Below the pieces are notes generated by a model, which ran no database searches, was not told the DNA's origin, and saw only the letters and a program-made list of their open reading frames with translations. The position numbers and the translations under genes were made by a program. Below, piece by piece: positions 4,097-35,573 of a DNA stretch of 35,573 bases; position 1 is the stretch's first letter, and every line of letters begins with the position of its first letter. Origin of the DNA: a virus (lineage: Duplodnaviria > Caudoviricetes). The stretch spans positions 1 to 35,573 of the IMG/VR virus record IMGVR_UViG_3300037882_002449; one strand, written 5' to 3'.

Positions 4097-4118
4097 CCTG
4101 CCACCACCACACCAAGAG

Positions 4119-4145
4119 AAGCGAGGCTAACCCCTCGCTTTTTTT
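4119..4145 (+). terminator. Rho-independent terminator
   Basis: AAGCGAGG-CTAACC-CCTCGCTT followed by a T run. Confidence 0.75.
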
Positions 4146-4306
4146 GTGATTTTCCGCTTGCTTCAAAAACTTTTGGCTTAGCCTTCCCCCATTAGCAGAC
4201 CGTTCCGCGCTTCCCTGCGACGCTACGCTCCCCCTGTGCGGCCCTCTGAAGAGGCTTCCCGTGTCACAAGAGCCCCCTTGTTTCACTCATTCCTCTTCAC
4301 AATTAT

Positions 4307-10491: not shown

Positions 10492-12305
10492 TTCCCACAC
10501 TACAACGCGCTCAGGTGCAGCAGAGCAACGCTATAGTCCCGCTCAGTAATAGCCGAGCGCTACAGCCCTACCAGTCAAACCAAGCCGCCGCCACTTCCCG
10601 CGAGGTGAACGCGCCCATCGAAATTCTCGACACCGCGAGGACTCAGTATCAGAAGGGGCAGGCGATAGGCCAAGGGCTTCAAGAAGCAGGCTCTAATCTG
10701 GCAAGAATCGCCATGGCCGGACTGGAAGCGAAGAACTACGCGGACCTGCACGAAGCCAAGACCAAGGCCGATTCAGTCATGGGCGAGCATCTGGAATGGC
10801 GGATGAAACACCAGGGCGAACCGGGGCGATGGGCCAAAGATTTTGAGGAGCGATTCACGGCTGCACGTGGAGCACTCGACGCCAAGCCTTTTGCGCCCGT
10901 AGTAAAAGACCAGCTGAAGCTTGACCTTGATTCCATGTTTCAGGCGGGGAGAACGCGCACTCTGTTAGATGCTACGAAAGCGGAGGTTGACCGGGGTGTT
11001 GCCGTGGCTGATGCCGTGGTTCAGACCGGAGTAAGGAACGGGGATATGGCGCAAGTGGAAGAAGGGCTTGCTTCTTTCTCTCAATTCACCGGAGAGCCCG
11101 CCGAAGTGACGGAGAACCGTAGACAAATCTACGCTGGCAAGGTGGGGGCTTCCCAGCTCCAGGCCGCCGAAGCAGAGCTTGTGATCTTTAAAACCAACCG
11201 AGACTTTGGCAATGCTGCCGGATTCGTGGAGGGCATTGAGAAGCCGGAAGGCGTGCCAGAAAAAGACTTTGACCTGTGGAAACGGGGGCAGTTGGCAGAG
11301 CTGAAGCTGAGTGAATCCGCAGACCGGGCAGACCAGATCATGAGCGCGAGCCCTAGCGAGTTCTTAACAAAGGCCCAGCGTGGAGAGTTTGACGCGCTGC
11401 CTAAAACCGTGCAACTAGCCAAGATCAAAGAAGCCGAGCAGTTACGCGAAACCTTGGCAGGCAACGAAACCGTGGAGGCTCGCAGGATGATAGAGCTAAG
11501 CGTTGCCAACGAAAACATTGACAGCGTGAGCATGGAAACGCTATCGCCAATGCTCAAAGAGGCTACCCCGTGGCACCGTGAGCAGGTCAGAGAACAACTA
11601 GAAATTGCCAAACTCAAAGGGCCAGTAGGCAGTAAGCAGGCGATTGCTAAGCTCTACTCCAAGCAGGAGGCCTTAATGCTTCAGGCCAAGACCTTCCAGC
11701 CAACGGGAGACGCAGACGCAGACAATATGAGGGCGAGCCGTATCAGGCTAGCGGCTTCATCACTACCCGCAGACCTAGCCAAGCCTATTGACGATGCCCT
11801 AACCTCTATCATGGATGGCGACCCCGTGGCAGTCTCCAACGGTGCAGCAATGGCCGTAGTGAAACAAAACATAGAGCTTGGCGGATTAGGTCCGCGCACC
11901 GTGCCAGTGCTAAGCGCAGACGGTAAGCAGATCATGCGCGAGGCTAAGGAGGTGGGAGAAGTGAAAGGCTTCATTTACGATACGGAATACTACGAAAGCG
12001 CAGAAGGCCCGCCGATTACAGAGCAGGGAATGATTCCCCTCACTGAGCTGAACCCCGTAGTGGTGGCCAAAGAAAAAGAAGTGATGCAGAAGATAGAGAA
12101 GGAACTGAACAAGCAGCTAGCGACAAAGCCGGACATGACAGAGCAGGAGAAAACAGCGCTCGCTCTAAAAATCTACACTGCCAATGGGGGCTCTTTGAAG
12201 ATGAAGCCACAACTAGAAAGCCCCCTTTTCAGAACACCTGCATTGAATCAAAACCGCACCTCGCTAGACTCCGCGCTCGAAACGCTTTACAAATATGCCA
12301 AGTAA
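10488..12305 (+). CDS. Internal virion (ejection) protein, gp15-like
   Basis: 605-aa helical protein, AIGQGLQEAG..LA motif; synteny. Confidence 0.65.
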   Translation: MIPTLQRAQVQQSNAIVPLSNSRALQPYQSNQAAATSREVNAPIEILDTARTQYQKGQAIGQGLQEAGSNLARIAMAGLEAKNYADLHEAKTKADSVMGEHLEWRMKHQGEPGRWAKDFEERFTAARGALDAKPFAPVVKDQLKLDLDSMFQAGRTRTLLDATKAEVDRGVAVADAVVQTGVRNGDMAQVEEGLASFSQFTGEPAEVTENRRQIYAGKVGASQLQAAEAELVIFKTNRDFGNAAGFVEGIEKPEGVPEKDFDLWKRGQLAELKLSESADRADQIMSASPSEFLTKAQRGEFDALPKTVQLAKIKEAEQLRETLAGNETVEARRMIELSVANENIDSVSMETLSPMLKEATPWHREQVREQLEIAKLKGPVGSKQAIAKLYSKQEALMLQAKTFQPTGDADADNMRASRIRLAASSLPADLAKPIDDALTSIMDGDPVAVSNGAAMAVVKQNIELGGLGPRTVPVLSADGKQIMREAKEVGEVKGFIYDTEYYESAEGPPITEQGMIPLTELNPVVVAKEKEVMQKIEKELNKQLATKPDMTEQEKTALALKIYTANGGSLKMKPQLESPLFRTPALNQNRTSLDSALETLYKYAK

Positions 12306-15300
12306 CCTCATTCCCGAGGCTGACGCCTTCCTCATAAGCCAGCATATAGACCAGATGCCGGAGGAGAAAAAGGCGCAAGCTGCGGACGTGCTGGGAAGGT
12401 ATCGGCGGCAGCAAGATCGGCTTGGCGTTCCGCTTTTTCCCAATGAGCAGCGCAAGCAGTGGGATGAAACCAAGAGCTTTCTTGGCAGCTTTAACGACCT
12501 CGACGCACTGGACAAGGAAGACGGAATTTATGCTGAGTCTGAGCGACTAGCTCCCGGCACTGGCGTGTCGCTGAAAAAGCAGACGCGGCTAGGGCAGTTC
12601 CTTTCCCGGCGCTACGGAGTGAGTAGCGTTGAAGCGCTCACCAACCCGCTCTACAAAGCCGATTACGCAAACAAAAAAGGGCTCAGCTCTTTCACAGACG
12701 ACACGCTTTTCGACAAAGCGAACGAGGACGTGACGCAGGAGAACAACACGCTGAGCTTCCGCCGTGATCTTCTCAACAAAGCTTATCAGTCAGCCTTCAC
12801 CACGGACAGCACAACGAATGCAGTCTTGGCATGGCAAAACGAAAACAAGGAGCAACCCGGCTACAATGGCGAGCGTGTGAGCGAGTTCATGTCAGCGCAC
12901 ATTCGCGCCCGTGACGTGATGTGGAAAGTAGACGCGGAAGAAGTAGTGAAGGCACTGGCTACGTCAATGCAGGACTCGACAGAGTATGGAACGCCGGGGT
13001 TTCCAGTTGAGGGGAAAGAAGAAGCCGCTGCCAAGATAGAGCAGTTCAAGCGACAGCTACTCACCCTAGACGCCGACGAACGCGCCCTTGCAATCCAAGG
13101 CATCGCGATCAAAGCCGAGGCGCTAGGCAAAGTGGAAGGCGCAGACAAAGACTATATCCAACAGGGAGCAGAAGGCTTTGCGCGTTTGTTCACCGACTTT
13201 GAGGGAAGAAATAGAGAGGTTGCTATTTCCAAGATTGACCCTGCCGCCATAACCCTAGGCACCGAAGAAGTGAAGACCTTGGAGCAGGCCCGTGAAATCT
13301 TGCTGAGCCGCGCAGAATCCGCCGAGCCCATTCCATTCTTACCAGGGAGAGAGTTGCTTGGTGGGGTGAAGAGCGGGCGCTTGCCCACTGAAGCCGAGGA
13401 AGACCTGCTGGCGCAGGCCCAAGCCGAAGAGCTAAGGATGCGCGACATTGAGCTGGAGATAATGTCAGCTCAAGAAGCCGCCGACCCTGTAGGACTAGAC
13501 ACCGCCGGAAAAGTAGCAGCAGGGCTAGGCACTAGCCTTGGACTCATGGCCGGAACTCTAGCCACACGTGGCGCAATCGTGCCAGTGTGGGCTGAGGCTT
13601 TCAGCGCAAACAACTACCGCGAGTTAAGACGTAGCAATCCAGAGATACCAAGGGAAGCCGCTAAGCTAACGGCAGACACCGCAGGAGCGCTAGAGGCAGC
13701 GCTTGAACTCATTGACATTCCAATTGCTAGTAAACTACTAAACGTCAGGCAATTAGTAAAAGGGGGGCTCACTAAGGCGGTGGCCACGCAAGCGGCTCTA
13801 AAGCTTGGAGCAAGCTACGCAGCGGAGAACGTGCAAGAAGCCGTTCAAGACTTGATGCTTCCGCTAATGAAGCAAGCCCTCGCCTCAGACGTGCCGGGGG
13901 TGGACTTTAGCACCGATCTTGACCAATGGGCAAAAGGGCGCGGAATCGTAGCCCTCACCACTATTCCCCTCACCATGATAGGCGCAGGGGTGGCAACATT
14001 CGCAGACTACCAGACAGGCCGCGACCTTGGCAGGCTGGCCGAAGTGCTAGCTCTGAAAGGCGCAAAGCCGCAACTCCAAGAGGCTATTGTGAGCCTAGTT
14101 CAGCAAGGGAAAAGCCAAGAAGCAGACACGCTATGGAAAGCCCAGCAAGAGAACCTTGACAGCGGCATTGCAGACGCCGCAGCGCTGAAATACACCGAGC
14201 TTGCGGATACGATCAAGCAAACTGCGGACGCCCGCAAACGCGCCCAGGAGAAGCTAGTCAGCCGCATCGACTATGACGGGAAGCAGTGGGCTATAAAAAT
14301 GATGGACGGCAGCACCGTGCAAGCCGACAGCATTCAAGCCGTGGACGCCCTGCTGAATGAAGTGGGGCTAGCTCGCAGGCAGGAGGAAGCGTCAATTCTG
14401 ATTGAGGCCGCGCAGTCTGGCCAGCAGCTAGCGTCAAAGGATGAGCGCGTGCAGGCTGAAGTTAGCCTACGCCCAGAACTATTCCGCCTCATGCGGGATG
14501 GCTATATCTCCGTGTATGATCCACGGCTTGGCATGGAGGTCAGCCGTATGGATGCCGCCGGACAGGTGGCCGAGGCGAACGAAGAAGCCAAGCTTCTACC
14601 AGCAGGACAAGGCGGGGACATTCTAGGCGCGATCAACGGATTCACCGAGGAAGAAGCCATTGCCAAAGTAGGAAACGCCACGAAGTCAGTCCTTCGTAAA
14701 ATGTCAGTAGCCACGCCGGGGGATGGCGTTAGGCCGCAAGCCATCACGCTAGCTCACGAAGTGGTGGAGCCCATAATGGTGCAGATGGTCAGAGACGGGA
14801 GAATGACAGAGGCAGGAATGAGGCAGGCCGCTCTTTCCCTCTCCAAGTTCGTCAACCCTGCCCAAATACGCGACAGCGCAGAGAAACAGTTAGCCGAGAA
14901 CCTGCACGCCGTGGCGAAAGGAGAAGGTAGCTGGACGATGCTACGCGAGACGGTGACAGAGTTCATGGTGAGGGATATTCTAGGCCGAGGGAAGAGCGGC
15001 ATCGCCAAGCCGGGGAGCTTTGAGGCTCTGATCTACCAAGCAACAATGGCCGCGCAGACGAAACAGGAAGCGCAAGAGCTTACCAAGCTAGGCAGGCTGC
15101 TAGCAGCGACACGCCGATTCCTAGCGAACATATTCAGGACTGTGGCGATGGTGAACAAAGCCCGCAGATCAGGGCAGGCGGACGACTTCTTTGCCATTAC
15201 CGATGCAGTGCTAGGCACCACAGAGCAGGCTCAATTTGAGCAGGAAGTGAAGCAGGAGCTTGTGCAGGAAATCGAAGGGCTGGACGCAGACCCGTTTAGC

Positions 15301-18300
15301 GTTACGGCACCACGCGCCACGCCGCAGGATGTTAGCAACGTGATACGCCTGCCGGACGGCGCGGAGATGATAGGGCCGACTCTGTTCAGCGTCACCGCCT
15401 ACCACGGCACCCCGCATAAAGTCGATAAGTTCAGCCTTGAAAAAATCGGCACGGGCGAGGGCGCGCAGGCTTACGGGTGGGGGCTTTACTTCGCGGAGAG
15501 CGATGAAGTGGCAAGAACTTATGCCAAAGAAAACACGGCAGCTAGCGGCTACGCTCAAATGGCGTTAGACTTCAAGGGCTCGGCAAAGGAAGCTATCCAA
15601 TATTTGAAATCCGATTCTTGGGATCAATCAAATCAAAGTGTTCAAACAGCTATCAGGCTTTTGCAAACCACTGGAAGCAGTGAAGGCAACCTCTACACCG
15701 TAGAGCTTCTTCCCGATAAAGAAGACTTCCTTGATTGGGACAAGCCGCTGTCAGAGCAGAGTGAGAAGGTGAAGGCTGCGATTGGTTTTGATAACGAGGC
15801 CGCTGTAAAATACAAAGAAATTCAAGCTCGAATGGCCGACCTTATGCGGGAGACGGGAGGGCTTGATTCCGAAGAATGGGACGCGCTTAAACAAGAGGCG
15901 CAAAATATTCGTTCCACAAAAGGGGGGACGCCTCTTCGAGAGGGTTCTGATTTTTATCGAGAACTAGGCGACGCTGAATCAGCGTCTAAAAAGCTCGCAT
16001 CACTCGGCATCTCCGGCATTCGCTACCTAGACGGCAGCAGCCGAGGAGCAGGAGAAGGCACCCACAATTACGTAATCTTCGACGAGAAGCTAGTCAAGAT
16101 CATCGAGGAGAATGGGCAGAAGGTGGAGGAGAGTAGATTTACCGCCAGCATCTCCCCCGCGCAAGACTCCGCTTATCTCGACGCTGTGAAAGCTGGGGAC
16201 ATGGAGACTGCCCAGCGGATGGTGGACGAGGCGGCGAAGGCTGCGGGGTATGATCGAATGCTCTTTCACCAGACGCACAAGAAAAACGTGCCGAAGATTT
16301 ACGCAAAGGGATTTGACCTGAATATCCTCGGAGCGCGTGAATCTGACAATGAAATGCCAGATGGTGTCTTTCTCAAGCCTGACGAAACAAATATTAGAGT
16401 CGGAGCCGCAGACGCAAAAGACATAAGCCAAATGCGGCTTTACGCTCGACTGGAAAACCCGCTGATTTTCAACAACCGCAAAGAGCTGTCTGAGTTCGTT
16501 CAATCGAAAAACCCTGCCTTTGGAAAGACGCAGGCCGAATTTACGAAATCCGACAAGGCAATCGTTGCGGACGTTGATAGACTTGAGGCGGAAGCAATAG
16601 CGTTGCCAAAAGGCAAAGAGCAAGACGCAGCATGGGAGCGATACTTCGCCGAAAGCGACATCATCTTCGAAAAGGGCCGTGCGTCGCTCAACGAGATTGC
16701 CGCGAGAGCGCGAGCAATCGCGACAGCAGCAGTGAGAGCAAGTGCGGACGGGATTATTGTTTACAATGACGCTGGCAGCTTCGGCAGGACTACAACAACG
16801 GTGGTTGCGCTGAATCCATCACAAATAAAATCCGCCGACCCCGTCACCTACGATGAGAACGGCCAAGTGATTCCTCTGAGCCAACGGTTTAACGAGCAGA
16901 GTGACAATATCAATTATAGCATTTCCCCCACCAGCACGCTAGAAAGCCTCAGCTCAGTTTTGCGGTCCAAGCTCGACCGCAACCCAGAGAAGAAGCGGGA
17001 GTATGCCAAGGAAGCGGCTAGACGACTGAAGGCACAAGCCGACAAGTGGAGCACTGACCGCTGGACGCCCAAGGGGGATTTGATTAGACCGCTGAGTGAG
17101 AAGCTGAATAAAGGCGAGCTTGATAAAGAGGAGGCCCGCCGCAGAAAGGCTTTGCGTGAAGAGAAAGACAACATCTTCACGGGAGAGGTGGAGGCGCGCT
17201 TCCAAGGCATTGAGCAGCTTGACCCGAAACTCTGGAACCACACGCTAGCTAGCTACGTGTTCCGCAGGGCAGGAAAAGGGCTACTGCGTGGTAAGATAAT
17301 TAGCCCGCAGAAGTGGAGAGCCCAGCAAGAAGAGCGGGTAATGATGGGTGAAGCTAGCACCATCCCCGGCGACTATGACGGAGCGCAGGACTTGCCCGCT
17401 TGGTTATTCGGTGGAGACGTGGACGCCAACCGAGTTGCAGACACGATATGGAACGACCAAGAGCAGGGCTTACTTTCTCAGCGGATCCTCGCCGAGAACG
17501 ACCCCAATGCACTTTGGGCGGCGATGGCTGACATGCTCAGCACCGTAGAGGGCAACCGTGAGCAGTGGAAGGGATACAGCGAGGAGCTACGCGAGGCTAG
17601 GAACAATGCAGCTACCCAAGCCCGCGAAGAAGCCGCCGCATGGAGAGCCGAGCAGGAAGCGATGCAGGCCAAGAACTGGAGCCCGATGGAAAGCCTGAAG
17701 CGCGACCTGAAGGCCCAAGAGCTAATGCTTGCTGCATTCCCTTCCGCCGTGAGGGAGAAAGCAGGACTTGGATGGGCTAGCCTTGCTGCCTTGAAAAGCG
17801 AGAAGAGCAGGCACAAGGAGCTTTTGAAGCGAGCCGAAAAGCTGGCGGATGCGGTGGAGAGTTATCTGAGGGAAACTTACCGCGAGCAGATCGAAGCCCT
17901 TTTCAACGCAGCCGCTCCAAATAAAGAGGCAGGCAAGAAGCCAACGGCCAAGATAGACGCCACCGTTGGCGACCTCGTAGAAGCGGCAAGGGCCAGCATG
18001 AGCCTAAACCAAGACGAGACGGACGGCAGCCTGGCAGAGCTAGACACGCGCCTAGCTTCCCCAGACATTACGCTGGAGGATGAAGTGAGGCTGCTGGCTG
18101 AGCGGAATCTGGTTGAGCTATTCGGCAACTCCAACCGCATCACCGAGGACACCGGACGGAAGGACAAGAACGGGAAGCCCATCTACCGCACAGCCTACGC
18201 CGGGGCAGATTCCGCGCAGCTAGAGGCCGCGCACGATGCCCTTTATACGTTGGTTGAGCACGGGCTAGCGCTATACCGCGCCAAGACCGAGGCGATACGC

Positions 18301-20304
18301 GCACGCCGCGAAGAGAAGCGGACTAAGTTTAAGGCTCTCACCAACCGCAAAGGCTGGGACTCAGAGGCCGACGAGCTAGCCAAAAACGCCGCTCAGTTTG
18401 GTAGCCGCGCCTTTGACTGGATGCTGGACGGCTCTAGCTTTGAACAGTGGATGTTCTACACTTTCGGAGAGAAAAGCCAGCTAGTACAGGACATCGTGGA
18501 CGAAGAACGCCGCGCATCCTACCAATACGAGGATGCAATTCAACAGGCCCAAGAGCGTATCTCAGATTTATTCACCAAGCTAGCAGGCGGATATGTGCAG
18601 GGGCAAAAACTCCGCTGGGAAATGTCACGCAAAACCGTTGAGGCTACGACTGAGCGGCACGGCACGCGCCAACTAAGCCAGCTAGAAGCTATTCAAGCCT
18701 TGATGATGTGGGCACAGGAGGATGGCAAGCGGCACATGATAGGCAAGGTGGACGAGAACAACCAGCCCGCAGCAGATGCTGGCTGGCATTATGGCCAGCC
18801 GTTTATTGACCAACTAGAAGCCGCTTTAACACCAGAAGCCCGGCAAGTAATGGCGTTTCTACGCGCCGAATACAACGCCGAGCATCCCGTATTGGATGCC
18901 TACTATCGCGAGCGACACAACATAGGGCTTCCTCAGCACGCCAACTATGCGCCTCTTACCGTTGCCCCACAGCAAGCCAAGGCTGGCCAAATGGTTGACC
19001 CCGTAAGCGGAATGAGTTCTAGTAGCTCAGTCCTAACGCCGGGAGCCCTACGAAGCCGGAACAAGAAGGCTTCAGCTCAGCCAGATTTTAGAGACGCCCT
19101 TGTGACCTTCATAGGCCACAATAAGCAAATGGAATACTGGAAGGCTTATTACGACCTAGCCACTGAAGCCCAAGCTGTGTTTGGCTCATTGCCTGTGCGC
19201 AATTCTATTGAGGCTAGAGGAGGCAAACAAATGCTAGCCGTGCTAGATAAATGGCTAGACGTCTTTGCTAAAGGCGGACAGGTGGACACCGCCGCAGGCT
19301 TAGCGATGGCCCAAGACATTAGCCAGATGCAGAGCTTAGGCTCAGCTATGGCCTTGTTTGGCAAGGGCTCCACGCTGCTAGTGCAAGCCACCCAACTAGG
19401 AGCGGCAAGCGTCACCATGCCTACAGCAGCCTACGTAAAGCGGCTTGGAAAGCTGCTCACTGGTAATCTTGGTTGGAAGGACGCGGTTAACTCGCCATTC
19501 ATCCAACGCCGCATAAAGTCCGGCCCGCCTATCATCCGGCAAATCATGGGGCGCTTAGCTACTGCTACCGAGCCTAATCAACTCAAAGAGCTCATGCACC
19601 GCGCAGGCCAAACGCTGAGCGCAGCAGACGGTATTTTCACAGGCGGCACATACGCCATCGTTTACGACTACCAACTTGAGCAGGCGAAGGCCATGCAGAT
19701 AGTTGACCCTGAAGACTACGCGCACAAAGAAACCGAGCGGATAGTTGAGCGCATAGCTCAGCCTACGCGCAAAGCCACGCGCTCCATTTTCGAAGTTGCG
19801 GCAGTTGGCCCAGGGTGGAGCACTGCCCTAGCTTTCGGCTCAGAGGCCCGCCAGAAGTTCGCTCTGTTCTCATGGGCTGCTTACAATGCGAAGAAGAATC
19901 CCGCTCAATTTGCGAAAGTTGCGTTCCTCGCAGTGGTTCTAAACGGCATAGGCTCCCACCTGCTGAAGTCACTTTGGAAAGCTCTGATCGGCAAAGACGA
20001 CGACGAAGTTTTGAGCCCTTCAACGCTGGCGCTAGCTGGAATCAATGGCCTAGCTGGGGGTATGCCAGTAACCAAGCTGCTATTCGGGGAAGACTCCGTG
20101 CTTGCATCGTTTGGCCGAGGCAAGGAAGCCATCCAGAAAATAGCCAAGGGAGACGCGGAAGCAGAAGACGCTTGGCAGATCGTGCAGGCCATCCTTGCAG
20201 CGGCAGGCTTATTCAACGAGAATGCCGCGAGCCTGAAAGTATTGAGCCAAGCGGGGCACGAAGGCTCTTCAATTCTCCTACCAGATAAAAACCAAAACAA
20301 ATGA
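12295..20304 (+). CDS. Giant internal virion / large polyvalent protein with two ART-like domains
   Basis: 2669 aa in the gp16 position; AYHGTPH..F....IGTGEGAQAYGWGLYFA and YLDAVKAGDMETAQRMVDEAAKAAGY..FHQT...QIKSADPVTYD motifs. Confidence 0.85.
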   Translation: MPSNLIPEADAFLISQHIDQMPEEKKAQAADVLGRYRRQQDRLGVPLFPNEQRKQWDETKSFLGSFNDLDALDKEDGIYAESERLAPGTGVSLKKQTRLGQFLSRRYGVSSVEALTNPLYKADYANKKGLSSFTDDTLFDKANEDVTQENNTLSFRRDLLNKAYQSAFTTDSTTNAVLAWQNENKEQPGYNGERVSEFMSAHIRARDVMWKVDAEEVVKALATSMQDSTEYGTPGFPVEGKEEAAAKIEQFKRQLLTLDADERALAIQGIAIKAEALGKVEGADKDYIQQGAEGFARLFTDFEGRNREVAISKIDPAAITLGTEEVKTLEQAREILLSRAESAEPIPFLPGRELLGGVKSGRLPTEAEEDLLAQAQAEELRMRDIELEIMSAQEAADPVGLDTAGKVAAGLGTSLGLMAGTLATRGAIVPVWAEAFSANNYRELRRSNPEIPREAAKLTADTAGALEAALELIDIPIASKLLNVRQLVKGGLTKAVATQAALKLGASYAAENVQEAVQDLMLPLMKQALASDVPGVDFSTDLDQWAKGRGIVALTTIPLTMIGAGVATFADYQTGRDLGRLAEVLALKGAKPQLQEAIVSLVQQGKSQEADTLWKAQQENLDSGIADAAALKYTELADTIKQTADARKRAQEKLVSRIDYDGKQWAIKMMDGSTVQADSIQAVDALLNEVGLARRQEEASILIEAAQSGQQLASKDERVQAEVSLRPELFRLMRDGYISVYDPRLGMEVSRMDAAGQVAEANEEAKLLPAGQGGDILGAINGFTEEEAIAKVGNATKSVLRKMSVATPGDGVRPQAITLAHEVVEPIMVQMVRDGRMTEAGMRQAALSLSKFVNPAQIRDSAEKQLAENLHAVAKGEGSWTMLRETVTEFMVRDILGRGKSGIAKPGSFEALIYQATMAAQTKQEAQELTKLGRLLAATRRFLANIFRTVAMVNKARRSGQADDFFAITDAVLGTTEQAQFEQEVKQELVQEIEGLDADPFSVTAPRATPQDVSNVIRLPDGAEMIGPTLFSVTAYHGTPHKVDKFSLEKIGTGEGAQAYGWGLYFAESDEVARTYAKENTAASGYAQMALDFKGSAKEAIQYLKSDSWDQSNQSVQTAIRLLQTTGSSEGNLYTVELLPDKEDFLDWDKPLSEQSEKVKAAIGFDNEAAVKYKEIQARMADLMRETGGLDSEEWDALKQEAQNIRSTKGGTPLREGSDFYRELGDAESASKKLASLGISGIRYLDGSSRGAGEGTHNYVIFDEKLVKIIEENGQKVEESRFTASISPAQDSAYLDAVKAGDMETAQRMVDEAAKAAGYDRMLFHQTHKKNVPKIYAKGFDLNILGARESDNEMPDGVFLKPDETNIRVGAADAKDISQMRLYARLENPLIFNNRKELSEFVQSKNPAFGKTQAEFTKSDKAIVADVDRLEAEAIALPKGKEQDAAWERYFAESDIIFEKGRASLNEIAARARAIATAAVRASADGIIVYNDAGSFGRTTTTVVALNPSQIKSADPVTYDENGQVIPLSQRFNEQSDNINYSISPTSTLESLSSVLRSKLDRNPEKKREYAKEAARRLKAQADKWSTDRWTPKGDLIRPLSEKLNKGELDKEEARRRKALREEKDNIFTGEVEARFQGIEQLDPKLWNHTLASYVFRRAGKGLLRGKIISPQKWRAQQEERVMMGEASTIPGDYDGAQDLPAWLFGGDVDANRVADTIWNDQEQGLLSQRILAENDPNALWAAMADMLSTVEGNREQWKGYSEELREARNNAATQAREEAAAWRAEQEAMQAKNWSPMESLKRDLKAQELMLAAFPSAVREKAGLGWASLAALKSEKSRHKELLKRAEKLADAVESYLRETYREQIEALFNAAAPNKEAGKKPTAKIDATVGDLVEAARASMSLNQDETDGSLAELDTRLASPDITLEDEVRLLAERNLVELFGNSNRITEDTGRKDKNGKPIYRTAYAGADSAQLEAAHDALYTLVEHGLALYRAKTEAIRARREEKRTKFKALTNRKGWDSEADELAKNAAQFGSRAFDWMLDGSSFEQWMFYTFGEKSQLVQDIVDEERRASYQYEDAIQQAQERISDLFTKLAGGYVQGQKLRWEMSRKTVEATTERHGTRQLSQLEAIQALMMWAQEDGKRHMIGKVDENNQPAADAGWHYGQPFIDQLEAALTPEARQVMAFLRAEYNAEHPVLDAYYRERHNIGLPQHANYAPLTVAPQQAKAGQMVDPVSGMSSSSSVLTPGALRSRNKKASAQPDFRDALVTFIGHNKQMEYWKAYYDLATEAQAVFGSLPVRNSIEARGGKQMLAVLDKWLDVFAKGGQVDTAAGLAMAQDISQMQSLGSAMALFGKGSTLLVQATQLGAASVTMPTAAYVKRLGKLLTGNLGWKDAVNSPFIQRRIKSGPPIIRQIMGRLATATEPNQLKELMHRAGQTLSAADGIFTGGTYAIVYDYQLEQAKAMQIVDPEDYAHKETERIVERIAQPTRKATRSIFEVAAVGPGWSTALAFGSEARQKFALFSWAAYNAKKNPAQFAKVAFLAVVLNGIGSHLLKSLWKALIGKDDDEVLSPSTLALAGINGLAGGMPVTKLLFGEDSVLASFGRGKEAIQKIAKGDAEAEDAWQIVQAILAAAGLFNENAASLKVLSQAGHEGSSILLPDKNQNK

Positions 20305-24713: not shown

Positions 24714-25502
24714 ATGAACGAACTAGCCAAGCCCTCAGCTCTGGCCACACTTGCAGCCCGCTTTAACATGGAGCCGATGAAGCTCCACAACACGCTAAAG
24801 CAGACCGTCTTCAAAGACTGCCGCTCTGATGAAGAGTTTGCAGCCTTGGTTATTGTAGCCAATGAGTACGGGCTCAACCCACTCACAAAGGAGTTGTATG
24901 CCTTCCCAGCCAAGGGGGGCGGCATCGTTCCCGTGGTGAGTGTGGACGGATGGATAAACCTCATGAACTCACACCCGCAATTCGACGGCATAGAGTTTGA
25001 GGACGCATTTACGGAAGGAAAGCCGTTCTCAGTGACAGCCACCGTTTACCGGAAGGATAGGACGAGGCCAACACGTGTGACGGAGTATTACTCTGAGTGC
25101 AGCCGAAACACAGACCCGTGGAAGACAGCGCCCTGCCGGATGCTGAGGCACAAAGCGCTGATCCAGTGCGTACGCGTGGCTTTCGGCTTCTCTGGCATAC
25201 ACGACGAAGACGAAGCGCGCTCCATCGCAGGCCGAGTCATTGAAGCGCAGCCAGTGCCTGCGCAGGTCCCCTTGTTCCAGGAGCCCTCAGCGGTAGCCAA
25301 GCCACAAAGCAAAGCAGACATGAAAGCTCAGCTTCTGTCCGCTATTGAAGCTTCAGGAACAACGCTTCCGGCTTTCTCCGCAGTCTGCCGCGAAAATGGC
25401 ATCTGGAGAAACGATTGGGAAAACCTCACCGGCCAAGAGCTGGCCGATTCGCTAGAGAAAGTTGCCGAGATCGTTCAACTCACAGGGGAGGGCGCGGAAT
25501 GA
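24714..25502 (+). CDS. bet: Single-strand annealing recombinase, Red-beta/RecT family
   Basis: ANEYGLNPLTKELYAFP, IVPVVSVDGW, RMLRHKALIQCVRVAFGFSGIHDEDE. Confidence 0.95.
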   Translation: MNELAKPSALATLAARFNMEPMKLHNTLKQTVFKDCRSDEEFAALVIVANEYGLNPLTKELYAFPAKGGGIVPVVSVDGWINLMNSHPQFDGIEFEDAFTEGKPFSVTATVYRKDRTRPTRVTEYYSECSRNTDPWKTAPCRMLRHKALIQCVRVAFGFSGIHDEDEARSIAGRVIEAQPVPAQVPLFQEPSAVAKPQSKADMKAQLLSAIEASGTTLPAFSAVCRENGIWRNDWENLTGQELADSLEKVAEIVQLTGEGAE

Positions 25503-25891
25503 TCGACCTGCCCGCTATACAATCGCAAGTGGCATCTGCCCTGCAAATGAGCCCTCTAGTTCTAGCTACAGGCGGGAGCTGGATGGCTCGTAGGGGCCGC
25601 GCCGTAGTATCCTGGCTACTTCACCACTGCCACGGAATGCGCTATGTGGACATTGGCAGACTGTGCGGCATCTCATGCCAACTGGCGAGGATGCACTGCG
25701 TTAACATCGTCCGCGAGGCTAACCGCAACGAGGAGCTTCAGAAGCAGCTGGCTGGGCTTGCCCTTGACTCGAAGCCCAAGACCAAGACTGACTTGGAACT
25801 TATGTTCTACGCCGCCCAGCCACAGGCCGGAGAAACCTCGGAAGACGCGAAGAAAAGACTTGTTTCTTTGTTTCTTTCGTTTAACTTCTAG
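25499..25891 (+). CDS. HTH protein resembling DnaA C-terminal domain
   Basis: ATGA overlap; R.RAVVSWLL....GMRYVDIGRLCG. Confidence 0.5.
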   Translation: MIDLPAIQSQVASALQMSPLVLATGGSWMARRGRAVVSWLLHHCHGMRYVDIGRLCGISCQLARMHCVNIVREANRNEELQKQLAGLALDSKPKTKTDLELMFYAAQPQAGETSEDAKKRLVSLFLSFNF

Positions 25892-25915
25892 CTGCCAACT
25901 CAACCACCGATTACC

Positions 25916-27067
25916 ATGACAGACCCACGTAGAGGCTTGCCTAGCGCGAGCAGTATTCACAGACTAGAGAAGTGCCCCGGTAGCTGGGCGTTTTGCCAAG
26001 GCCGGACGAGCAAAGAAACGGAAGACGCAAGCTCTGGAACCCGCATACACGCGGCCCTAGAGAGTAACGACCCAAGCCAGCTTTCCGCTTCCGAGCGGGA
26101 GTCGTTTGACATGTGCGGCAGAGGTGCGGGCAAAGTGCTGAGCAAATGGCTGGACGAAAGTCCTATTGGCGCAATTGCCGAGGCTAGAGAAACCCGCCTT
26201 GGCCTTACCGCCTTAGGCGGAGTAGTGGAGGTGAAACCCGACACTACAGCCAAGCTCGTTTTCACCGGACAAGCGGACGTGATAATAAGCATGGACGCGC
26301 ACGCCTTGGTCATCGACTACAAGACAGGCAGGGGAGATTACGACAGCGCGGAGACAAACAGCCAGCTAAGAGCCTTGGCTTACCTAGTCCACAAGCACCT
26401 CAGAGTGGATTCTGCACGCGTTGCCCTTGTTCAGCCTTGGGTAGGACAGCCCACAGTCGCAGACTTTGACGCCGAGACGCTGAAGCAGGCTGGCCAATAC
26501 TTGCACCACGTCCTGGCCGAGAGTCGCAAGCCAGACGCCCCCCTGATAGCAGGCGACCATTGCAAATTCTGCCCCGCGCTGGCAGATTGCCCAGCAGTGA
26601 GGGAGAAGGCAATCGGCATAGCGCATCGCCACGCTAGCGGCTTGCCGGACACGCCGAAGGAGGCACGCGCCAAGATGTTTGGCCGCGCAATGCACCTTCC
26701 AGCAGCGGAGCACGCGCAGCTTGTGAAAGAAATGAAGCTTCTGGAGTTGTTCCGTGGTGCAGTGCTCGACGCAGCAAAGGAGAAGGCCGGGTCTGATCCA
26801 GAATTTCAGCAATTCTACCGACTGAAAAAGGGCGTAGTGCGCGAGAAAGTGACCAACGTGCAGCTTGTCTTTGAGAGGCTGTCAGCTATGGGCATCGACG
26901 CCCCAGCTTTTGCAGATGCCTGCACAGTGACTAAGGACGCATTGAAGGAGCTTCTAGCCGATAGGCTGGGGCTCAAAGGGAAAGCGCTAACCGATGCAAT
27001 GTCTTTAGCGCTAGACGGAGCCACAGAGAAAACAGAATCAGCTCAACAACTGGAGGAAGTAGAATGA
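25916..27067 (+). CDS. PD-(D/E)XK Cas4-like exonuclease (DUF2800-like)
   Basis: SASS..R..KCPGS, GTRIHA, GQAD...IDYKTG, QL..LA, GDHCKFCPA...CP. Confidence 0.88.
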   Translation: MTDPRRGLPSASSIHRLEKCPGSWAFCQGRTSKETEDASSGTRIHAALESNDPSQLSASERESFDMCGRGAGKVLSKWLDESPIGAIAEARETRLGLTALGGVVEVKPDTTAKLVFTGQADVIISMDAHALVIDYKTGRGDYDSAETNSQLRALAYLVHKHLRVDSARVALVQPWVGQPTVADFDAETLKQAGQYLHHVLAESRKPDAPLIAGDHCKFCPALADCPAVREKAIGIAHRHASGLPDTPKEARAKMFGRAMHLPAAEHAQLVKEMKLLELFRGAVLDAAKEKAGSDPEFQQFYRLKKGVVREKVTNVQLVFERLSAMGIDAPAFADACTVTKDALKELLADRLGLKGKALTDAMSLALDGATEKTESAQQLEEVE

Positions 27068-31729: not shown

Positions 31730-33232
31730 ATGGCAGACCCGCTATGGAGAATTTCTTGGCTCTACAAGATCAAAGACGAGCGGGGAAAGGTGATAGCTTT
31801 TGAGCCTTCTACTGAGCAAGTCGTGGTGATATGCGTGGTGCATCTGAGGAAGTGGAGAAGGGTGCTGATTCCCAAGGCCAGACAGCTTTGGATGAGCACA
31901 GCGCTAAGCGTCATCTGCCTAGACCAGTGCTTATTTCAGGAGGGCTTTGCCGCTGCCTGCATCGATAAAACAGCAGAGGACGCCGCCAAAAAGCTGCGGG
32001 ATAAAGTGTTGTTAGCATGGGAGCAACTGCCCGCCCCGCTAGTTAGTCAATACGAGTTACCCAGCGGCTACGCGCCAAAGGGCATAGGCTGGAAAATCCA
32101 CGGCTCAGAGGAAGCGCCCAGCTCATTCAGTGCAGGCGCTTCCTTCCGTGGTGGCCAGCTCCAATTTCTTTGGATTAGTGAATGGGGGGCGATCCAGATG
32201 GAAGAGGCGAAACGCTCAGAAGAAATCCTGACTGGCTCATTGCCAGCAGCAGAGCAGGGAACGACCGTAATTGAAACCACTTGGCGCGGAGGCAAGGGGG
32301 GCGACCTTTGGCCTATCGCCGAAGAGGCTATGCAGCCGGAGGAGCAGAAAGGCCCGACTAGCTGGAGACTTCTTTTCTTTCCATGGTGGATTGCCCCGAA
32401 ATACTCCCAGACGTGGGGAGCGATCGACGAACTTTCTGCCGCTTACTTTGCCAAGCTCGAAGCGGAGGAAGGCATAAAGCTAAGCCAAGAGCAAAAGCTG
32501 TGGTATGCCGGACAGCGCAGGACTAACCCGCGAAAAGTGAAAGAGGAATATCCTAGCACTCTGGCCGAATGCTGGGAGGCACCAGTTGCAGGCGCGATCT
32601 GGGGCGACCAAGTGGCGAAGGCTCACGCAGAAGGGCGCGTTGCCAACTTTCCCGTTGACGGGAGAGTTCCGGTTCATTGTTCATGGGACTTGGGTAGCTC
32701 TCTCAACACCGTGGTGTGGTATTTCCAGAGGATGCCAAACGGCTTCACGCGCTTCATTGACGTGGATTACAAGTTAGAAATGACCCTGCCCCAGCGAGCG
32801 GCTTGGATGAAGGCCAAGGGCTACAACTACGGCACTCACTACCTGCCACACGATGCCAACCAGGAGAGGCACGGCACCACCTTCTTCAAGGACTGGCAAG
32901 CCATAGCCCGCGAGCACGGCATAGGAGGGGCGCGAGTCGTCCCTGTGACGCTGGAGAAATGGCACGGCATCGACTACACTACGCAGCTTTTCCCCTCGTT
33001 TGAATTCAGGCTTCCGGCCTGTGAGAAAGGGCTAGAAGGGCTAGCGGCCTACCGCAGACAGCCGCAGAAAGCTAATGGGGTGATAGTGGACGAGCCCGTT
33101 CACGACTGGGCATCTCACACCGCAGACGGCTTACGGACGATGGCGGAGGCAGACAAAGCTGGGCTTGTCCAAGGCTTCCGCAACTCGCCAATGCAGGTTC
33201 AGAATAATATTGTATTGACAAATTGCGTATAA
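31730..33232 (+). CDS. terL: Terminase large subunit
   Basis: DP.WR...LYKI, IPKARQLWMST, LWISEW, IETT, FFPWW, WDLG, HYLPHD, PVHDWASHTADGLR. Confidence 0.95.
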   Translation: MADPLWRISWLYKIKDERGKVIAFEPSTEQVVVICVVHLRKWRRVLIPKARQLWMSTALSVICLDQCLFQEGFAAACIDKTAEDAAKKLRDKVLLAWEQLPAPLVSQYELPSGYAPKGIGWKIHGSEEAPSSFSAGASFRGGQLQFLWISEWGAIQMEEAKRSEEILTGSLPAAEQGTTVIETTWRGGKGGDLWPIAEEAMQPEEQKGPTSWRLLFFPWWIAPKYSQTWGAIDELSAAYFAKLEAEEGIKLSQEQKLWYAGQRRTNPRKVKEEYPSTLAECWEAPVAGAIWGDQVAKAHAEGRVANFPVDGRVPVHCSWDLGSSLNTVVWYFQRMPNGFTRFIDVDYKLEMTLPQRAAWMKAKGYNYGTHYLPHDANQERHGTTFFKDWQAIAREHGIGGARVVPVTLEKWHGIDYTTQLFPSFEFRLPACEKGLEGLAAYRRQPQKANGVIVDEPVHDWASHTADGLRTMAEADKAGLVQGFRNSPMQVQNNIVLTNCV

Positions 33233-33242
33233 TGGCTAGGGT
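33215..33242 (+). promoter_or_regulatory. Putative promoter heading the cassette array
   Basis: TTGACA-16 nt-TAGGGT, also TATAAT at 33228-33; ATG at 33250. Confidence 0.55.
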
Positions 33243-33249
33243 GGGGTCT

Positions 33250-33480
33250 ATGAGCGAAACATTCACCCGCCCCTGCCCCAACTGCGAGGACTGGCGGTAC
33301 GTCCCAGACCCAACCGAGCGCGAAACCTGCCCGCTGTGCAAAGGCGATCTGTATCAATGCACCGTGTGCGAGCTGGGTATCACAGATTGTGACTGCGATC
33401 ACGCAGGGATGGAGCTTGAGATGGTGAACGATTTAGCGCACTCACAGAAGGGGCGGGAGCAAGGCACTGACAACACTTAA
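33250..33480 (+). CDS. Cys-rich Zn-finger-like protein (first array gene)
   Basis: CPNC...CPLC...CTVC...CDC; tail VNDLAHSQKG encoded by the first attC-like site. Confidence 0.7.
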   Translation: MSETFTRPCPNCEDWRYVPDPTERETCPLCKGDLYQCTVCELGITDCDCDHAGMELEMVNDLAHSQKGREQGTDNT

Positions 33481-33551
33481 GACTAAGTCTATGGAAAACA
33501 ATATCGAAAACTCATCGGCCCCTTCTGTTGATCTGCCGCGCCTTGTTCGCA
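33423..33551 (-). mobile_element. attC-like recombination site A
   Basis: + strand GGTGAAC..GCGCA..CACAGAAGGGGC pairs GCCCCTTCTGTTG..TGCCGC..TTGTTCGCA. Confidence 0.75.
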
Positions 33552-33745
33552 AATCTTCGTACGTTGTGATGAAAATCATTCAAGGATGGCACGATCATTG
33601 GGATATTCATTGCGTCTGCGAAGACCAAAAAACTGCAAAAGCTGAATGCGATCTCCGAAACACAAAGGCGGTATCCAACCGATACTTTGTGACGAGGGTT
33701 CCTTTTATTGCGAACGCCACAGCGCAGACACAGCAGGGGCGGTAG
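33491..33745 (+). CDS. Cassette gene, hypothetical protein
   Basis: Leader ...LPRLVR, tail ANATAQTQQGR; body bounded by GTTCGCAA (33545) and TTGCGAAC (33708-15). Confidence 0.75.
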   Translation: MENNIENSSAPSVDLPRLVRKSSYVVMKIIQGWHDHWDIHCVCEDQKTAKAECDLRNTKAVSNRYFVTRVPFIANATAQTQQGR

Positions 33746-33754
33746 AACATACTT

Positions 33755-34279
33755 ATGAAAGACCTGCATACTCCAGTCGAGCCAAAGCAACTTCACCCAA
33801 TGTTGCTGGACGACGCGCAAATCGGCAACATTGTCGCCTTCGACTGCCGCGAAAGAATGCTTACCGTCCAAGTTGACGAAATGCCCAGTGGCATCTTGCC
33901 AGGTCACAGACTCGGAGCGCGGGCAATCCTAGTGTTTTTACCGAAGAACGGCCATTCAACACCGAAGCCAAAAACCAATGAAGTGCCGCCAGCCAAGGCG
34001 GTTGACCCTGCGACACCCTTGTTCGGCACTTGGCAGCCCATCGCTACCATACCGGATGGGGTGGAAGTCCTCGCAACCTGCGGCGGCATCTGTAGCCCTG
34101 CGGTGGTACTATGGAGCGAGTTGGAGCAATGCTGGATAGATGGCGATAATGACGATCGAAGGACAGAGAGAGATGATTGGCCGCTTACGCACTGGATGCC
34201 GCTACCTGATCCGCCGAACGTCCAAGCTCACGGCGATGCCGGGGGCGAGAAACCAACAACGAACGAATCAAACCCATGA
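33755..34279 (+). CDS. Fused cassette gene; C-terminal DUF551-like domain
   Basis: WQPIATIP...THWMPLPDPP; internal degenerate site about 33943-34027. Confidence 0.75.
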   Translation: MKDLHTPVEPKQLHPMLLDDAQIGNIVAFDCRERMLTVQVDEMPSGILPGHRLGARAILVFLPKNGHSTPKPKTNEVPPAKAVDPATPLFGTWQPIATIPDGVEVLATCGGICSPAVVLWSELEQCWIDGDNDDRRTERDDWPLTHWMPLPDPPNVQAHGDAGGEKPTTNESNP

Positions 34280-34343
34280 ATCAGAATCCACCAGATAGTA
34301 CCACTACGCCCCGCTCTGTTGACCAGCAGCAGGCTTGTTCGGC
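34213..34343 (-). mobile_element. attC-like site D (hybrid arms)
   Basis: GCCGAAC...TTGTTCGGC; loop and right arm nearly identical to site E, left arm poorly complementary. Confidence 0.65.
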
Positions 34344-34605
34344 TTTTTGGACGCCCGCAACAACCAAGCCGGGAGGGTGGGAACGAAAGGTTCTTTGCTG
34401 GGTGGTCTGGCCGGAATGCGGCTGGCCTTCACCGCCAGAACCGATAATCGGATGGTGGAAGCATGGGCCGGAATGCTTTGCTGTGGAATCGGTAGAGCAC
34501 GCAAACCATCTCGTTACGCACTGGGCCGAGATACCGGAGCCGAACGTCCCTGCTCTGGCACAGAGCGGGGGAGAGAAAACATCAACAAAGGAATCAGACT
34601 CATGA
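34276..34605 (+). CDS. Cassette gene, DUF551-like
   Basis: WTPA...VLCW...VTHWAEIPEP; bounded by GTTCGGCT and AGCCGAAC. Confidence 0.75.
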   Translation: MNQNPPDSTTTPRSVDQQQACSAFWTPATTKPGGWERKVLCWVVWPECGWPSPPEPIIGWWKHGPECFAVESVEHANHLVTHWAEIPEPNVPALAQSGGEKTSTKESDS

Positions 34606-34669
34606 ATCAGAATCAACTCAATGATGCCACTGCGCCCCGCTCTGTTGTCCAGCAGCAGGCTTGTTCGGC
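34539..34669 (-). mobile_element. attC-like site E
   Basis: GCCGAAC GTCCCTGCTCTGGCACAGAGCGGGG pairs CCCCGCTCTG(T)TG(T)CCAG(C)AGCAGGCTT GTTCGGC. Confidence 0.85.
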
Positions 34670-34862
34670 TGCGTTTATTATATTTTACGCAGAACGTTCC
34701 TGCTCTGGCGACGGAGGGATATTCACCTCGCTGGAGGATTTCATTCCATATCGTCGGCAAGGATGGAGCGGCACCCAAGAGGCCAATGCCGCCGCTGACG
34801 CAATGATTGTGGCGATGGACGAGGCGAACGATCAAGCGCAGCCAGCGCGAGCACATGAGTAA
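34602..34862 (+). CDS. Cassette gene, hypothetical (probable deletion fusion)
   Basis: ATG 34602 overlapping the upstream TGA; AAADAMIVAM motif; contains site remnant at 34689. Confidence 0.6.
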   Translation: MNQNQLNDATAPRSVVQQQACSAAFIIFYAERSCSGDGGIFTSLEDFIPYRRQGWSGTQEANAAADAMIVAMDEANDQAQPARAHE

Positions 34863-34913
34863 ATCAAACACACAGGAGCCAGCCGAGCGCTTGGCTGCGG
34901 TGCCTTGTTCGCC
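34823..34913 (-). mobile_element. attC-like site F
   Basis: GGCGAAC..CGCAGCCAGCGC pairs GCGC(T)TGGCTGCG..TTGTTCGCC. Confidence 0.8.
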
Positions 34914-35160
34914 GACGCCCGCAGCAGAGGCGAAGCGGGAAATGACAATGATGACATGGATGGCCACAGAAGGCGGGAGGAAGTGCCCAGCGTGCGGCAA
35001 ATACGCGAAGGCCGAGCATCTCGGTTTCACGGGCGGCTACTCCAACATAGGAGGCTCTGTCGTGCATGTCAGCTCCTACGGGCATCTTCCTGGCCACGGA
35101 TGTAATCAGTCGGCGAACGATCAAACTCTGCCGACCGAAGGGGCGGCGCAAGACTCATGA
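34855..35160 (+). CDS. Cassette gene, Zn-ribbon-like protein
   Basis: CPACGK...H...C; bounded by GTTCGCCGAC and GTCGGCGAAC. Confidence 0.75.
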   Translation: MSKSNTQEPAERLAAVPCSPTPAAEAKREMTMMTWMATEGGRKCPACGKYAKAEHLGFTGGYSNIGGSVVHVSSYGHLPGHGCNQSANDQTLPTEGAAQDS

Positions 35161-35214
35161 AAACAGAAACGACTACATCCGCCCCGAAGGTTGGCAGCAG
35201 TGCCCTTGTTCGGG
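35112..35214 (-). mobile_element. attC-like site G
   Basis: GGCGAAC..ACTCTGCCGACC-GAA-GGGGCGG pairs CCGCCCC-GAA-GGTTGGCAG(C)AGT..TTGTTCGGG. Confidence 0.85.
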
Positions 35215-35474
35215 CTTTTAGGGTGGACGTTGCAGACTGGCCCGAGGCCACTGGCATCGTCCGCACAACCAGCCCGGCAAAAGCAAAGTTTGCAGCGTGG
35301 AGAGGAGCTAAAGATGCGGGGTATGATCTGCCCTTCGCTCGCTTCAAAGCACGGCGAGCACCCGAGTATGACGGCAACACGGCGCTCATCGCTGGCCGCA
35401 ACTACGATCTCGAATACGCCACGGCGGCGGATAGCCCGAACGACAAAGGCCAGCCACGGGCGGATAAGACATAG
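35157..35474 (+). CDS. Cassette gene, hypothetical protein
   Basis: Leader ...VGSSALVR, body with AKAK...RRAPEYD, tail PNDKGQPRADKT; bounded by GTTCGGGCT and AGCCCGAAC. Confidence 0.8.
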   Translation: MKTETTTSAPKVGSSALVRAFRVDVADWPEATGIVRTTSPAKAKFAAWRGAKDAGYDLPFARFKARRAPEYDGNTALIAGRNYDLEYATAADSPNDKGQPRADKT

Positions 35475-35522
35475 ATTTCAGACAGGACGTTGCTGCCCGT
35501 TGGCTGCGCCGACTTGTTCGAC
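35435..35522 (-). mobile_element. attC-like site H (terminal)
   Basis: CCCGAAC..GGCCAGCCACGGGCGG pairs CTGCCCG(T)TGGCTG(C)GCC..TTGTTCGAC. Confidence 0.85.
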
Positions 35523-35573
35523 CCCGAGCGGAGGGCTTCCGCAGTAACCGTATAGACCCAAGACAATGACAAC

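Follow-up and report, generated by a model that had tools for sequence, protein, structure and literature searches.

Whether a run of small genes at the end of a phage contig can consist of integron cassettes whose genes oppose the usual polarity of the attC sites between them is the question raised by IMG/VR virus record IMGVR_UViG_3300037882_002449, a linear sequence of 35,573 nt, about 90% complete; the window analysed here covers the whole record. The array starts 18 nt past the terminase large subunit gene (terL) and extends to the contig end. An original prediction had proposed that its sites are themselves coding, each gene borrowing its tail and stop from the following cassette and bringing its own start and leader. 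The array was confirmed in its core as a real feature; that model holds for tails and polarity, and needs weakening where leaders, coupling and the comparison with classical attC sites are concerned. The array can with good confidence be regarded as a phage-borne series of integron cassettes whose polarity is inverted; an integron integrase (IntI) that cuts the coding strand between the AA and the C of the site core (AA↓C) likely moves them.

Eight AAC...GTT junctions between 33423 and 35522 divide seven cassette bodies; five are intact attC hairpins and three are hybrid or decayed. The strand given is that of the top strand of the site.

S1, 33423..33551, minus strand: attC-like; AAC 33427, GTT 33545, stop 33480, ATG 33491; arm score 23, right-arm bulges, folding z-score only -1.1.
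S2a, 33709..33808, minus strand: hybrid; AAC 33713, GTT 33802; S1-type left arm, unrelated right arm; own arms score -1.5, left arm against S1 right arm 25.
S2b, 33943..34027, minus strand: decayed; AAC 33947 (KN-GHST), GTT 34021 (LFG).
S3, 34213..34343, minus strand: hybrid; ATGA overlap 34276; right arm near-identical to that of S4; own arms score 8, S4 left against S3 right 31.
S4, 34539..34669, minus strand: attC-like, the best formed of the eight; right-arm bulges C, T, T (+ strand); ATGA 34602; z-score -5.0.
S5, 34823..34913, minus strand: attC-like; ATGAGTAA overlap at 34855; z-score -2.8.
S6, 35112..35214, minus strand: attC-like; tail N-DQTLPTEGAAQDS and stop, leader MKTETTTSAPKVGSSALV; ATGA 35157; z-score -2.5.
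S7, 35435..35522, minus strand: attC-like; tail N-DKGQPRADKT and stop; no ATG in loop; z-score -2.3.

The core pairs of all eight sites spanned 85-131 bp with spacers of 5/5 or 6/5, within the attC definition used, by which inverted AAC and GTT cores span 57-141 bp and have an unpaired spacer of 5-6 nt. Complementary arms were found only in S1, S4, S5, S6 and S7 (arm scores 19.5-30.5). In these five, read on the + strand, it is the right arm that has extra bases, and a spacer of 6 nt, where present, is on the left; the extrahelical bases (EHBs) follow a C/T pattern in S1, S4, S5 and S7 (first bulge of S5 ambiguous) and are C only in S6, and S2a, S2b and S3 do not show this arrangement. The sites had been described as canonical on the minus strand: the string quoted for this is S4 exactly, and the description suits only the five sites with complementary arms. 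AAC is an in-frame Asn codon at 8 of 8 junctions (33427, 33713, 33947, 34217, 34543, 34827, 35116 and 35439; (1/3)^8, about 1.5e-4), including the seven gene tails originally quoted and an eighth junction, KN-GHST at 33947, that had been missed. As predicted, GTT is read in all three frames: LVR (33545, 35208), CSA/CSP (34337, 34663, 34907) and ML/LFG (33802, 34021). The loops had been said to hold the stop and the next start, often overlapping; overlaps occur at 4 of 6 window junctions, as ATGA in S3, S4 and S6 and as ATGAGTAA in S5, and stop and start are separated by 10 nt in S1 and 9 nt in S2a. S7 lacks an ATG after its stop, and S2b lacks a frame-0 stop, so that two cassette bodies are fused in the 174-aa open reading frame (ORF) 33755-34279. 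Because a site detector (box 6/7, score 12.5) gave only 2 hits when sequence of other loci was shuffled (159,337 bases), the run of sites within 2.1 kb is not due to chance. Five intact sites and no PF00589 gene, on a contig ending 51 nt after S7, also place the array among the clusters of attC sites without a nearby intI (CALINs, at least two attC).

Past S7, at 35517-35573, a 30-nt stretch with a small hairpin (GCGGA-GGGCT-TCCGC) leads to an AAC at 35546, with CGTATAG next and an ATG at 35566. This stretch is possibly a ninth junction, or else what is left of attI. Contigs of run X9 change partner at 35513 and 35543.

According to published rules (PMC2727003, PMC5027507), EHB position fixes the recombined strand, base identity matters little, and the last bulge is T. 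Since the bulge arm sets the strand and the last bulge is T, the window + strand is the bottom strand of the sites; the bottom strand coincides with the coding strand, and the genes run antisense to the usual cassette orientation, as predicted. A classical cassette has a top-strand gene upstream of its own attC; all window genes are on the bottom strand.

Two-arm patterns retrieved at least 121 and at least 120 viral loci and at least 137 genome loci, and the site counts that follow rest on the listed loci. Most of the 120 loci retrieved with a one-arm pattern lacked a hairpin; L010-L136 were excluded from detector and frame statistics, and only those with sites were added to the junction matching. 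The detector yielded 223 sites in 1.72 Mb versus 2 in 0.16 Mb of shuffled sequence; the sites are not independent lineages, and a crude inverted/canonical orientation label was noisy and unused. Among 93 distinct viral sites (8 at edges), 78 had an upstream bottom-strand frame of at least 45 codons, and AAC fell in frame and in the two other frames 64, 8 and 6 times, versus 6, 4 and 4 times in 14 chromosomal sites; a random AAC frame in a larger set, which had been named as the outcome adverse to the model, was not observed. At 8 of the 14 off-frame viral sites the gene stops on AA itself. A stop between the cores was present in frame 0 at 88 of 93 viral sites versus 43 and 35 in the other frames (chromosomal control 24, 22 and 25 of 28). 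An ATG occurred inside 54 of 80 viral sites, with GTT frames 18/43/19. Stop and start formed ATGA in 13 of 42 cases and were spaced -11 to +12 nt in 32 of 42, with gaps of up to 93 nt; the claim that any order of cassettes gives a gap-free, coupled operon was too strong.

Between adjacent sites of the same polarity, ORF cover was greater on the bottom strand in 37 of 49 viral pairs (3 equal) versus 0 of 15 chromosomal pairs. In chromosomal arrays of Verrucomicrobiae with the same site family, genes lie on the other strand in 14/15 pairs and 34/43 sites; these host arrays have canonical genes and likewise carry C on the bottom strand (26/28). The bulge after C is a same-arm T in 63 of 93 viral sites. 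R-box pairing between the 4 bases past GTT and those before the cassette's own downstream AAC, as brought together in a circle, averaged 3.65 of 4 versus 2.31 in situ (35 higher, 3 lower, 11 equal; n=49; p=0.0002), and host cassettes showed the same trend (3.62 versus 2.69; n=13).

Junction mapping across phages defined the mobile unit. Window 35115-35441 corresponds to locus L008 2071-2397 at 93% identity, from AAC to the next AAC, and the matches L145/L163 (98.5%) and L178/L207 (100%) are likewise bounded. Matches ended at AAC +2 to +4 in 9 of 10 listed cases, the list being filtered for ends near a site and away from locus edges. In L008 the cassette lies downstream of a resident gene, which acquires the tail N-DQTLPTEGAAKDS; the cassette gene ends in N-S and a stop, this tail coming from sequence matching the attI-like site of L517. 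The homologue of the resident gene in record G001 has no cassette behind it. In eight metagenome runs, among best-supported rows, contigs changed partner at AAC (33426, 34541-34542, 35111-35119) and just past GTT (33547-33550, 34339-34346, 34665-34667, 35210); array parts without contig cover in these runs carry no information. Genes other than the window's resident one abut S1 at exactly 33426 in four runs, contigs switch partner at 33748 in S2a, and S2b has in other strains an S1-type left arm after 33954. Some exchange points lie inside shared repeats, and most mapped ends lie at AAC. In modular phage exchange by homology linkers, exchange points would be spread within the shared repeats. 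The predicted crossover at AA↓C is supported by junction mapping, by circle-form pairing and by the attI junction described below.

In the L008 fragment (2071-2403) a lone cassette with an attI-like end is flanked by what is probably the small terminase gene and by a gene of 664 aa, so that a core gene carries a cassette-encoded tail; no IntI was found in the fragment. The resident gene gave no HMM hit and is a small terminase by position only.

The genes of the array are as follows.

33250..33480, + strand: resident 76-aa gene, not a cassette, just after terL; ends within S1 (N-DLAHSQKGREQGTDNT and stop).
33491..33745, + strand: cassette gene, 84 aa, no assigned function.
33755..34279, + strand: 174-aa ORF, two bodies fused in frame via the decayed S2b; second body DUF551-like.
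34276..34605, + strand: cassette gene, 109 aa; family with cassette and bare forms.
34602..34862, + strand: cassette gene, 86 aa, no assigned function.
34855..35160, + strand: cassette gene, 101 aa, CxxC (zinc-ribbon-like); 64 homologues.
35157..35474, + strand: cassette gene, 105 aa; unit 35118-35440 recurs in L008.

For ORF 35157, 7 of 20 candidate homologues passed; similarity stops at SPN in 6 of 7, with six different tails, and earlier in P0007, and a related leader is present in 7 of 7. ORF 34276 has 32 homologues: the 8 with a CSA-type leader have the Asn in 8/8 and 8 different tails, and the Asn is present in 3 of 14 bare genes of 67-73 aa and in 4 of 10 other forms. By a loose count, the 64 homologues of ORF 34855 have an Asn 3-10 residues past the last motif in 27/39 long-leader and 10/25 short forms; three close homologues share the body up to QN and diverge afterwards. 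In P0073 a body 96% identical comes with a different first half of the leader. From the comparisons for these three ORFs, tails switch at the Asn, and leaders track the body over short distances only. The tail DQTLPTEGAA occurs on unrelated genes in the window, L008 and L533; in L533 the S6 hairpin (91%) stands in front of an unrelated body, and some bodies were found with different left arms and loops. The borrowing of tail and stop from the following cassette, for which similarity ending at the Asn with different tails had been proposed as a check, was borne out. The expected co-segregation of leader and body was not, as stated: the start does lie inside the site, and the leader is not always kept with the body (P0073, L533 and a deletion in a 15-nt repeat), leaders being swapped and reused.

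The bare homologues of ORF 34276 (P0084-P0104) have neither leader nor tail; the Asn at the junction position in three of them is a possible capture site.

IntI above the TIGR02249 cut-off was found beside such arrays in G001, G006, G013, G025, G029, G040 and G048. That of G001, a complete record, scored 354 bits versus a cut-off of 265, and its best PDB match was IntI4 2A3V, aligned over 9-316 including the IntI-specific insert and the catalytic motifs. In 8 phage records intI is on the same strand as the genes, downstream, 33-58 nt past an attI-like AAC-(A/T)G motif from which the last gene takes its tail and stop. G001 and G006 are identical rightwards from the attI-like AAC, with intI and attI in common, and different leftwards. 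From this position and orientation of intI and the divergence of G001 and G006 leftwards of AAC, the intI-attI-attC geometry of the phage arrays is standard, with only the cargo flipped. IntI is present in 5/5 Verrucomicrobiae genomes (G052-G056). In a tree of 16 rows (L131, L132 and L530 left out as duplicate, frameshifted or mis-called), five phage IntIs form their own branch (support 88/89, not starred); phage and chromosomal IntIs share 30-48% identity. The phage label needs 2 changes on the tree, and a single phage clade is therefore not shown.

Several observations concern individual integrase loci. In L515, L516 and L521 the last cassette gene continues across the attI-like site and either ends 2 nt short of the intI start or overlaps it, so that intI itself may be coupled to the array. 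Chromosomal IntI-like genes L527 and L531 (G054, G055) group with phage IntIs L519 and L521 (100/99) and are possibly prophage-borne. The two cassettes nearest attI in G001 (L001 2771-4042) are DNA methyltransferases. G003 (L132) has a G001-like IntI split over two frames, by frameshift or assembly error. In Rctr41k (KX853513; L535, 8419-10095) an IntI-like gene annotated xerD occurs with four similar attC-like sites amid small genes and methyltransferases; these sites were dropped as extra examples, their polarity being ambiguous.

From these data the following mechanism is proposed. Each cassette carries its attC-like hairpin in front of its own gene, with bulges on the coding strand, and the unit mapped from the junctions, C plus whole hairpin plus body plus AA, would be moved by IntI catalysis on that strand. 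For any upstream gene the left arm encodes a brief tail, then a stop read in the frame of AAC; the loop and right arm encode a start and a leader of about 15-20 aa for the cassette's own gene, and tails and leaders alike would be translated. Either a gene reads into the following site with AAC as its Asn codon or it terminates on AA, a rule probably kept by selection, so that shuffled genes would stay terminated and near the next start, where translation may be coupled. Entry of new cassettes is likely at the attI-like site that closes the operon on its 3' side; this site adds tail and stop and is followed in some phages by a co-oriented intI. As the window record is without integrase, its enzyme would be supplied by the host, by a co-infecting phage or by the end missing from the record. 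Besides this, another route, likely RecT-mediated, would act through near-identical arms, swapping leaders and leaving hybrid sites. Three hypotheses may explain the inversion: that intI is co-oriented with a one-way operon; that the bottom strand is more single-stranded on the lagging template (principle in PMC8946536) or in transcription bubbles; and that host defence cassettes would be silenced (10.1101/2024.07.02.601686).

The sites could alternatively be integron relics, an array built by IntI in an ancestor and now exchanged by RecT/exonuclease homologous recombination between similar arms. This is improbable. In its favour, the record encodes RecT and exonuclease and no IntI, S2a and S3 are hybrid and S2b is decayed, the strain in run X1 has its deletion inside a 15-nt repeat, and the same body was seen with different left arms and loops. 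However, five sites retain full EHB geometry, units 93-100% identical are bounded AAC to AAC in other phages, partners change at 33426, 34541-34542 and 35116-35119 in several runs, and the record is cut 51 nt after S7 with about 10% missing; relics would, moreover, leave the anatomy unchanged. Very unlikely is recombination of the top (minus) strand at R'' (G↓TT on the + strand), with leaders borrowed instead of tails. The same hairpin does precede different bodies, with similarity ending 0-7 nt past GTT, and the first + strand bulge is C, not the usual G; but circle-form pairing favours AA↓C, the attI junction is at AAC, the C on the bottom strand is shared by host arrays with canonical genes, and a common attC on different bodies is equally expected from a family of related sites. 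Top-strand recombination at R'' may contribute to making new cassettes; insertion of ordinary cassettes by the top strand was ruled out, as it would flip gene and attC together. Scarcely credible, despite long minus-strand ORFs such as 34281-35030, is a reading of the + strand ORFs as antisense counterparts of ordinary cassettes, or of the hairpins as terminators or chance repeats, given + strand proteins with 7, 64 and 32 homologues whose bodies are conserved, including bare forms without hairpin, frame-locked stops, annotated phage genes all on the + strand and a terminator scan at chance.

Several results weigh against inverted cassettes moved by IntI. The arms of S2a, S2b and S3 (scores -1.5, 2.5 and 8.0) are not complementary, so that 3 of 8 window sites are unable to fold. 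The AAC/GTT triplets are invariant and the flanks of the R boxes depart from the RYYYAAC/GTTRRRY consensus (CGAAC), with GAAC also in host sites of the same family; the search patterns fixed both GAACG and the C bulge in the anchor sites, and these are therefore not independent counts. In 9 of 49 viral pairs ORF cover is greater on the top strand, with a seemingly real canonical gene in L158. The bottom strand of viral sites is not the more stable one (lower in 44/93, mean +0.18 kcal/mol) and has no purine excess (fraction 0.496). No PF00589 tyrosine recombinase was found in the window record, linear and about 90% complete as it is, and the search for attI motifs in the window was at chance (20 versus 21.75), with a weak candidate at AAC 35546. 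IntI exceeded the cut-off in 7 of 51 viral records with such sites (2/9 and 5/42; mostly fragments), and any IntI match was found in 1 of 6 near-complete records of the 42-record set. Three of the listed matches open 20 nt before GTT and not at the upstream AAC; the one clean deletion observed in a near-identical strain, 326 nt in run X1, has its joint (34306 to 34633) inside the 15-nt right-arm repeat and not at AAC; and no clean AAC-to-AAC skip in near-identical strains was seen among the best-supported rows of eight runs. The apparent canonical top-strand cassette gene of L158 is at 3783-4512 (reoriented).

The phage sites share with classical attC the AAC/GTT cores, 5-6 nt spacers and one-arm bulges with last T, and with classical integrons the pairing of R'' with R' in the circle, an intI directed away from the array and, as proposed here, bottom-strand A↓C cleavage (PMC2727003, PMC5027507). 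They differ from classical cassettes in that the phage gene is on the bottom strand behind its own attC, with start and leader inside attC, and in that the next cassette or attI supplies the tail and the stop. The intI beside the array that marks a complete integron is absent from the window record, and, since the genes run towards intI, they could not be transcribed from a Pc-type promoter near attI. Sedentary integrons of Verrucomicrobiae metagenome-assembled genomes (L408-L415, L434-L438; G052-G056) have sites of this family, with AACAAG spacer, C bulge and a second T, and differ in canonical orientation and lack of bottom-strand frame bias. Phage CALINs resemble the window in being attC clusters without integrase, with small unknown genes and DNA methyltransferases; 5/6 of their sites recombined with IntI1, the bottom strand better, and the accessible parts of that paper describe no inverted genes or borrowed stops (Qi et al. 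2023, PMC9892861). In the example TJE1 the only high-scoring site (1020-1069) is canonical, with a top-strand gene ending in its own attC. The ORF-11 peptide of attI1 crosses the crossover, gets its stop from the incoming cassette and couples translation (review PMC8876359); it is a top-strand leader peptide at attI only, whereas in the phage arrays every cargo gene is concerned, on the bottom strand. Given this precedent and the 13 of 34 canonical host genes that read into their own attC, the earlier description of classical attC as largely non-coding was overstated, and a coding attC alone is not the novelty. Synthetic attC sites can encode a peptide and still recombine (Nivina 2020, PMC7439510); those were engineered, whereas the phage sites are natural, with built-in stop and start. 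In inverted-integrase integrons intI is co-oriented with the cassette genes, as in the phage arrays, but there intI is flipped relative to attC, whereas here the intI-attC arrangement is standard and the cargo flipped (PMC13323075, 10.1101/2022.02.06.479319). Off-target attG insertion has also been described (10.1101/2022.09.11.507474). In the literature searched, which left closed supplements and most subscription journals outside, no description was found of arrays whose genes lie inverted with respect to attC.

The record was identified as a podophage by Pfam and PHROGs (44 ORFs: portal, capsid, tail tube and nozzle), which also annotated RecT, an exonuclease, a replication initiator and a DnaC-like loader; every annotated phage gene is on the + strand.

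31730-33232: terminase large subunit (terL), Pfam/PHROGs.
24714..27067, + strand: RecT/Bet-like annealing protein and exonuclease, Pfam/PHROGs; candidate for homology-type exchanges.

A 2669-aa protein of polyvalent type with an ART-PolyVal domain is encoded at 12295-20304. At 33215-33233, at the terL end just before the array, TTGACA and TATAAT are spaced by only 7 nt, a nonstandard promoter spacing; promoter consensus and terminator scans of the window were uninformative, with terminators at chance level. Near-identical sequence is present in freshwater metagenome runs, of which the best-matching one may be the sample of origin; there was no RNA dataset among those listed, which is uninformative on expression. 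No terL-based relatives were found in viral or metagenome contigs, and blastn of the array against 50,697 GenBank phages gave no match. Because the site family is common to Verrucomicrobiae chromosomes, a host from that phylum is likely.

The usual picture of integrons is of bacterial devices with a polarity that serves to bring genes under the control of Pc; of late they have also been seen as reservoirs of genes against phages. In a phage version of reversed polarity, in which stops are frame-locked and the integrase is the phage's own, the same chemistry would work on the phage's side and the C-termini of proteins would depend on gene order. Such a version would give a named mechanism for mosaic clusters of small phage genes, account for the low-complexity N- and C-terminal extensions of many phage proteins and offer natural coding attC parts for engineering. 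Tentatively, and short of an even chance, phages may possess a mirror-image integron system of their own, IntI and attI included, in which attC also serves as translational punctuation; the inversion would be a firewall silencing host cassettes (many of them anti-phage) in phage arrays and phage cassettes in host integrons. On the same tentative view the arrays would record how cassettes first arise, as bare ancestors of 67-73 aa persist beside forms with a leader grafted at GTT and a tail at the in-frame AAC; such bare and cassette gene pairs would make the origin of cassettes testable.

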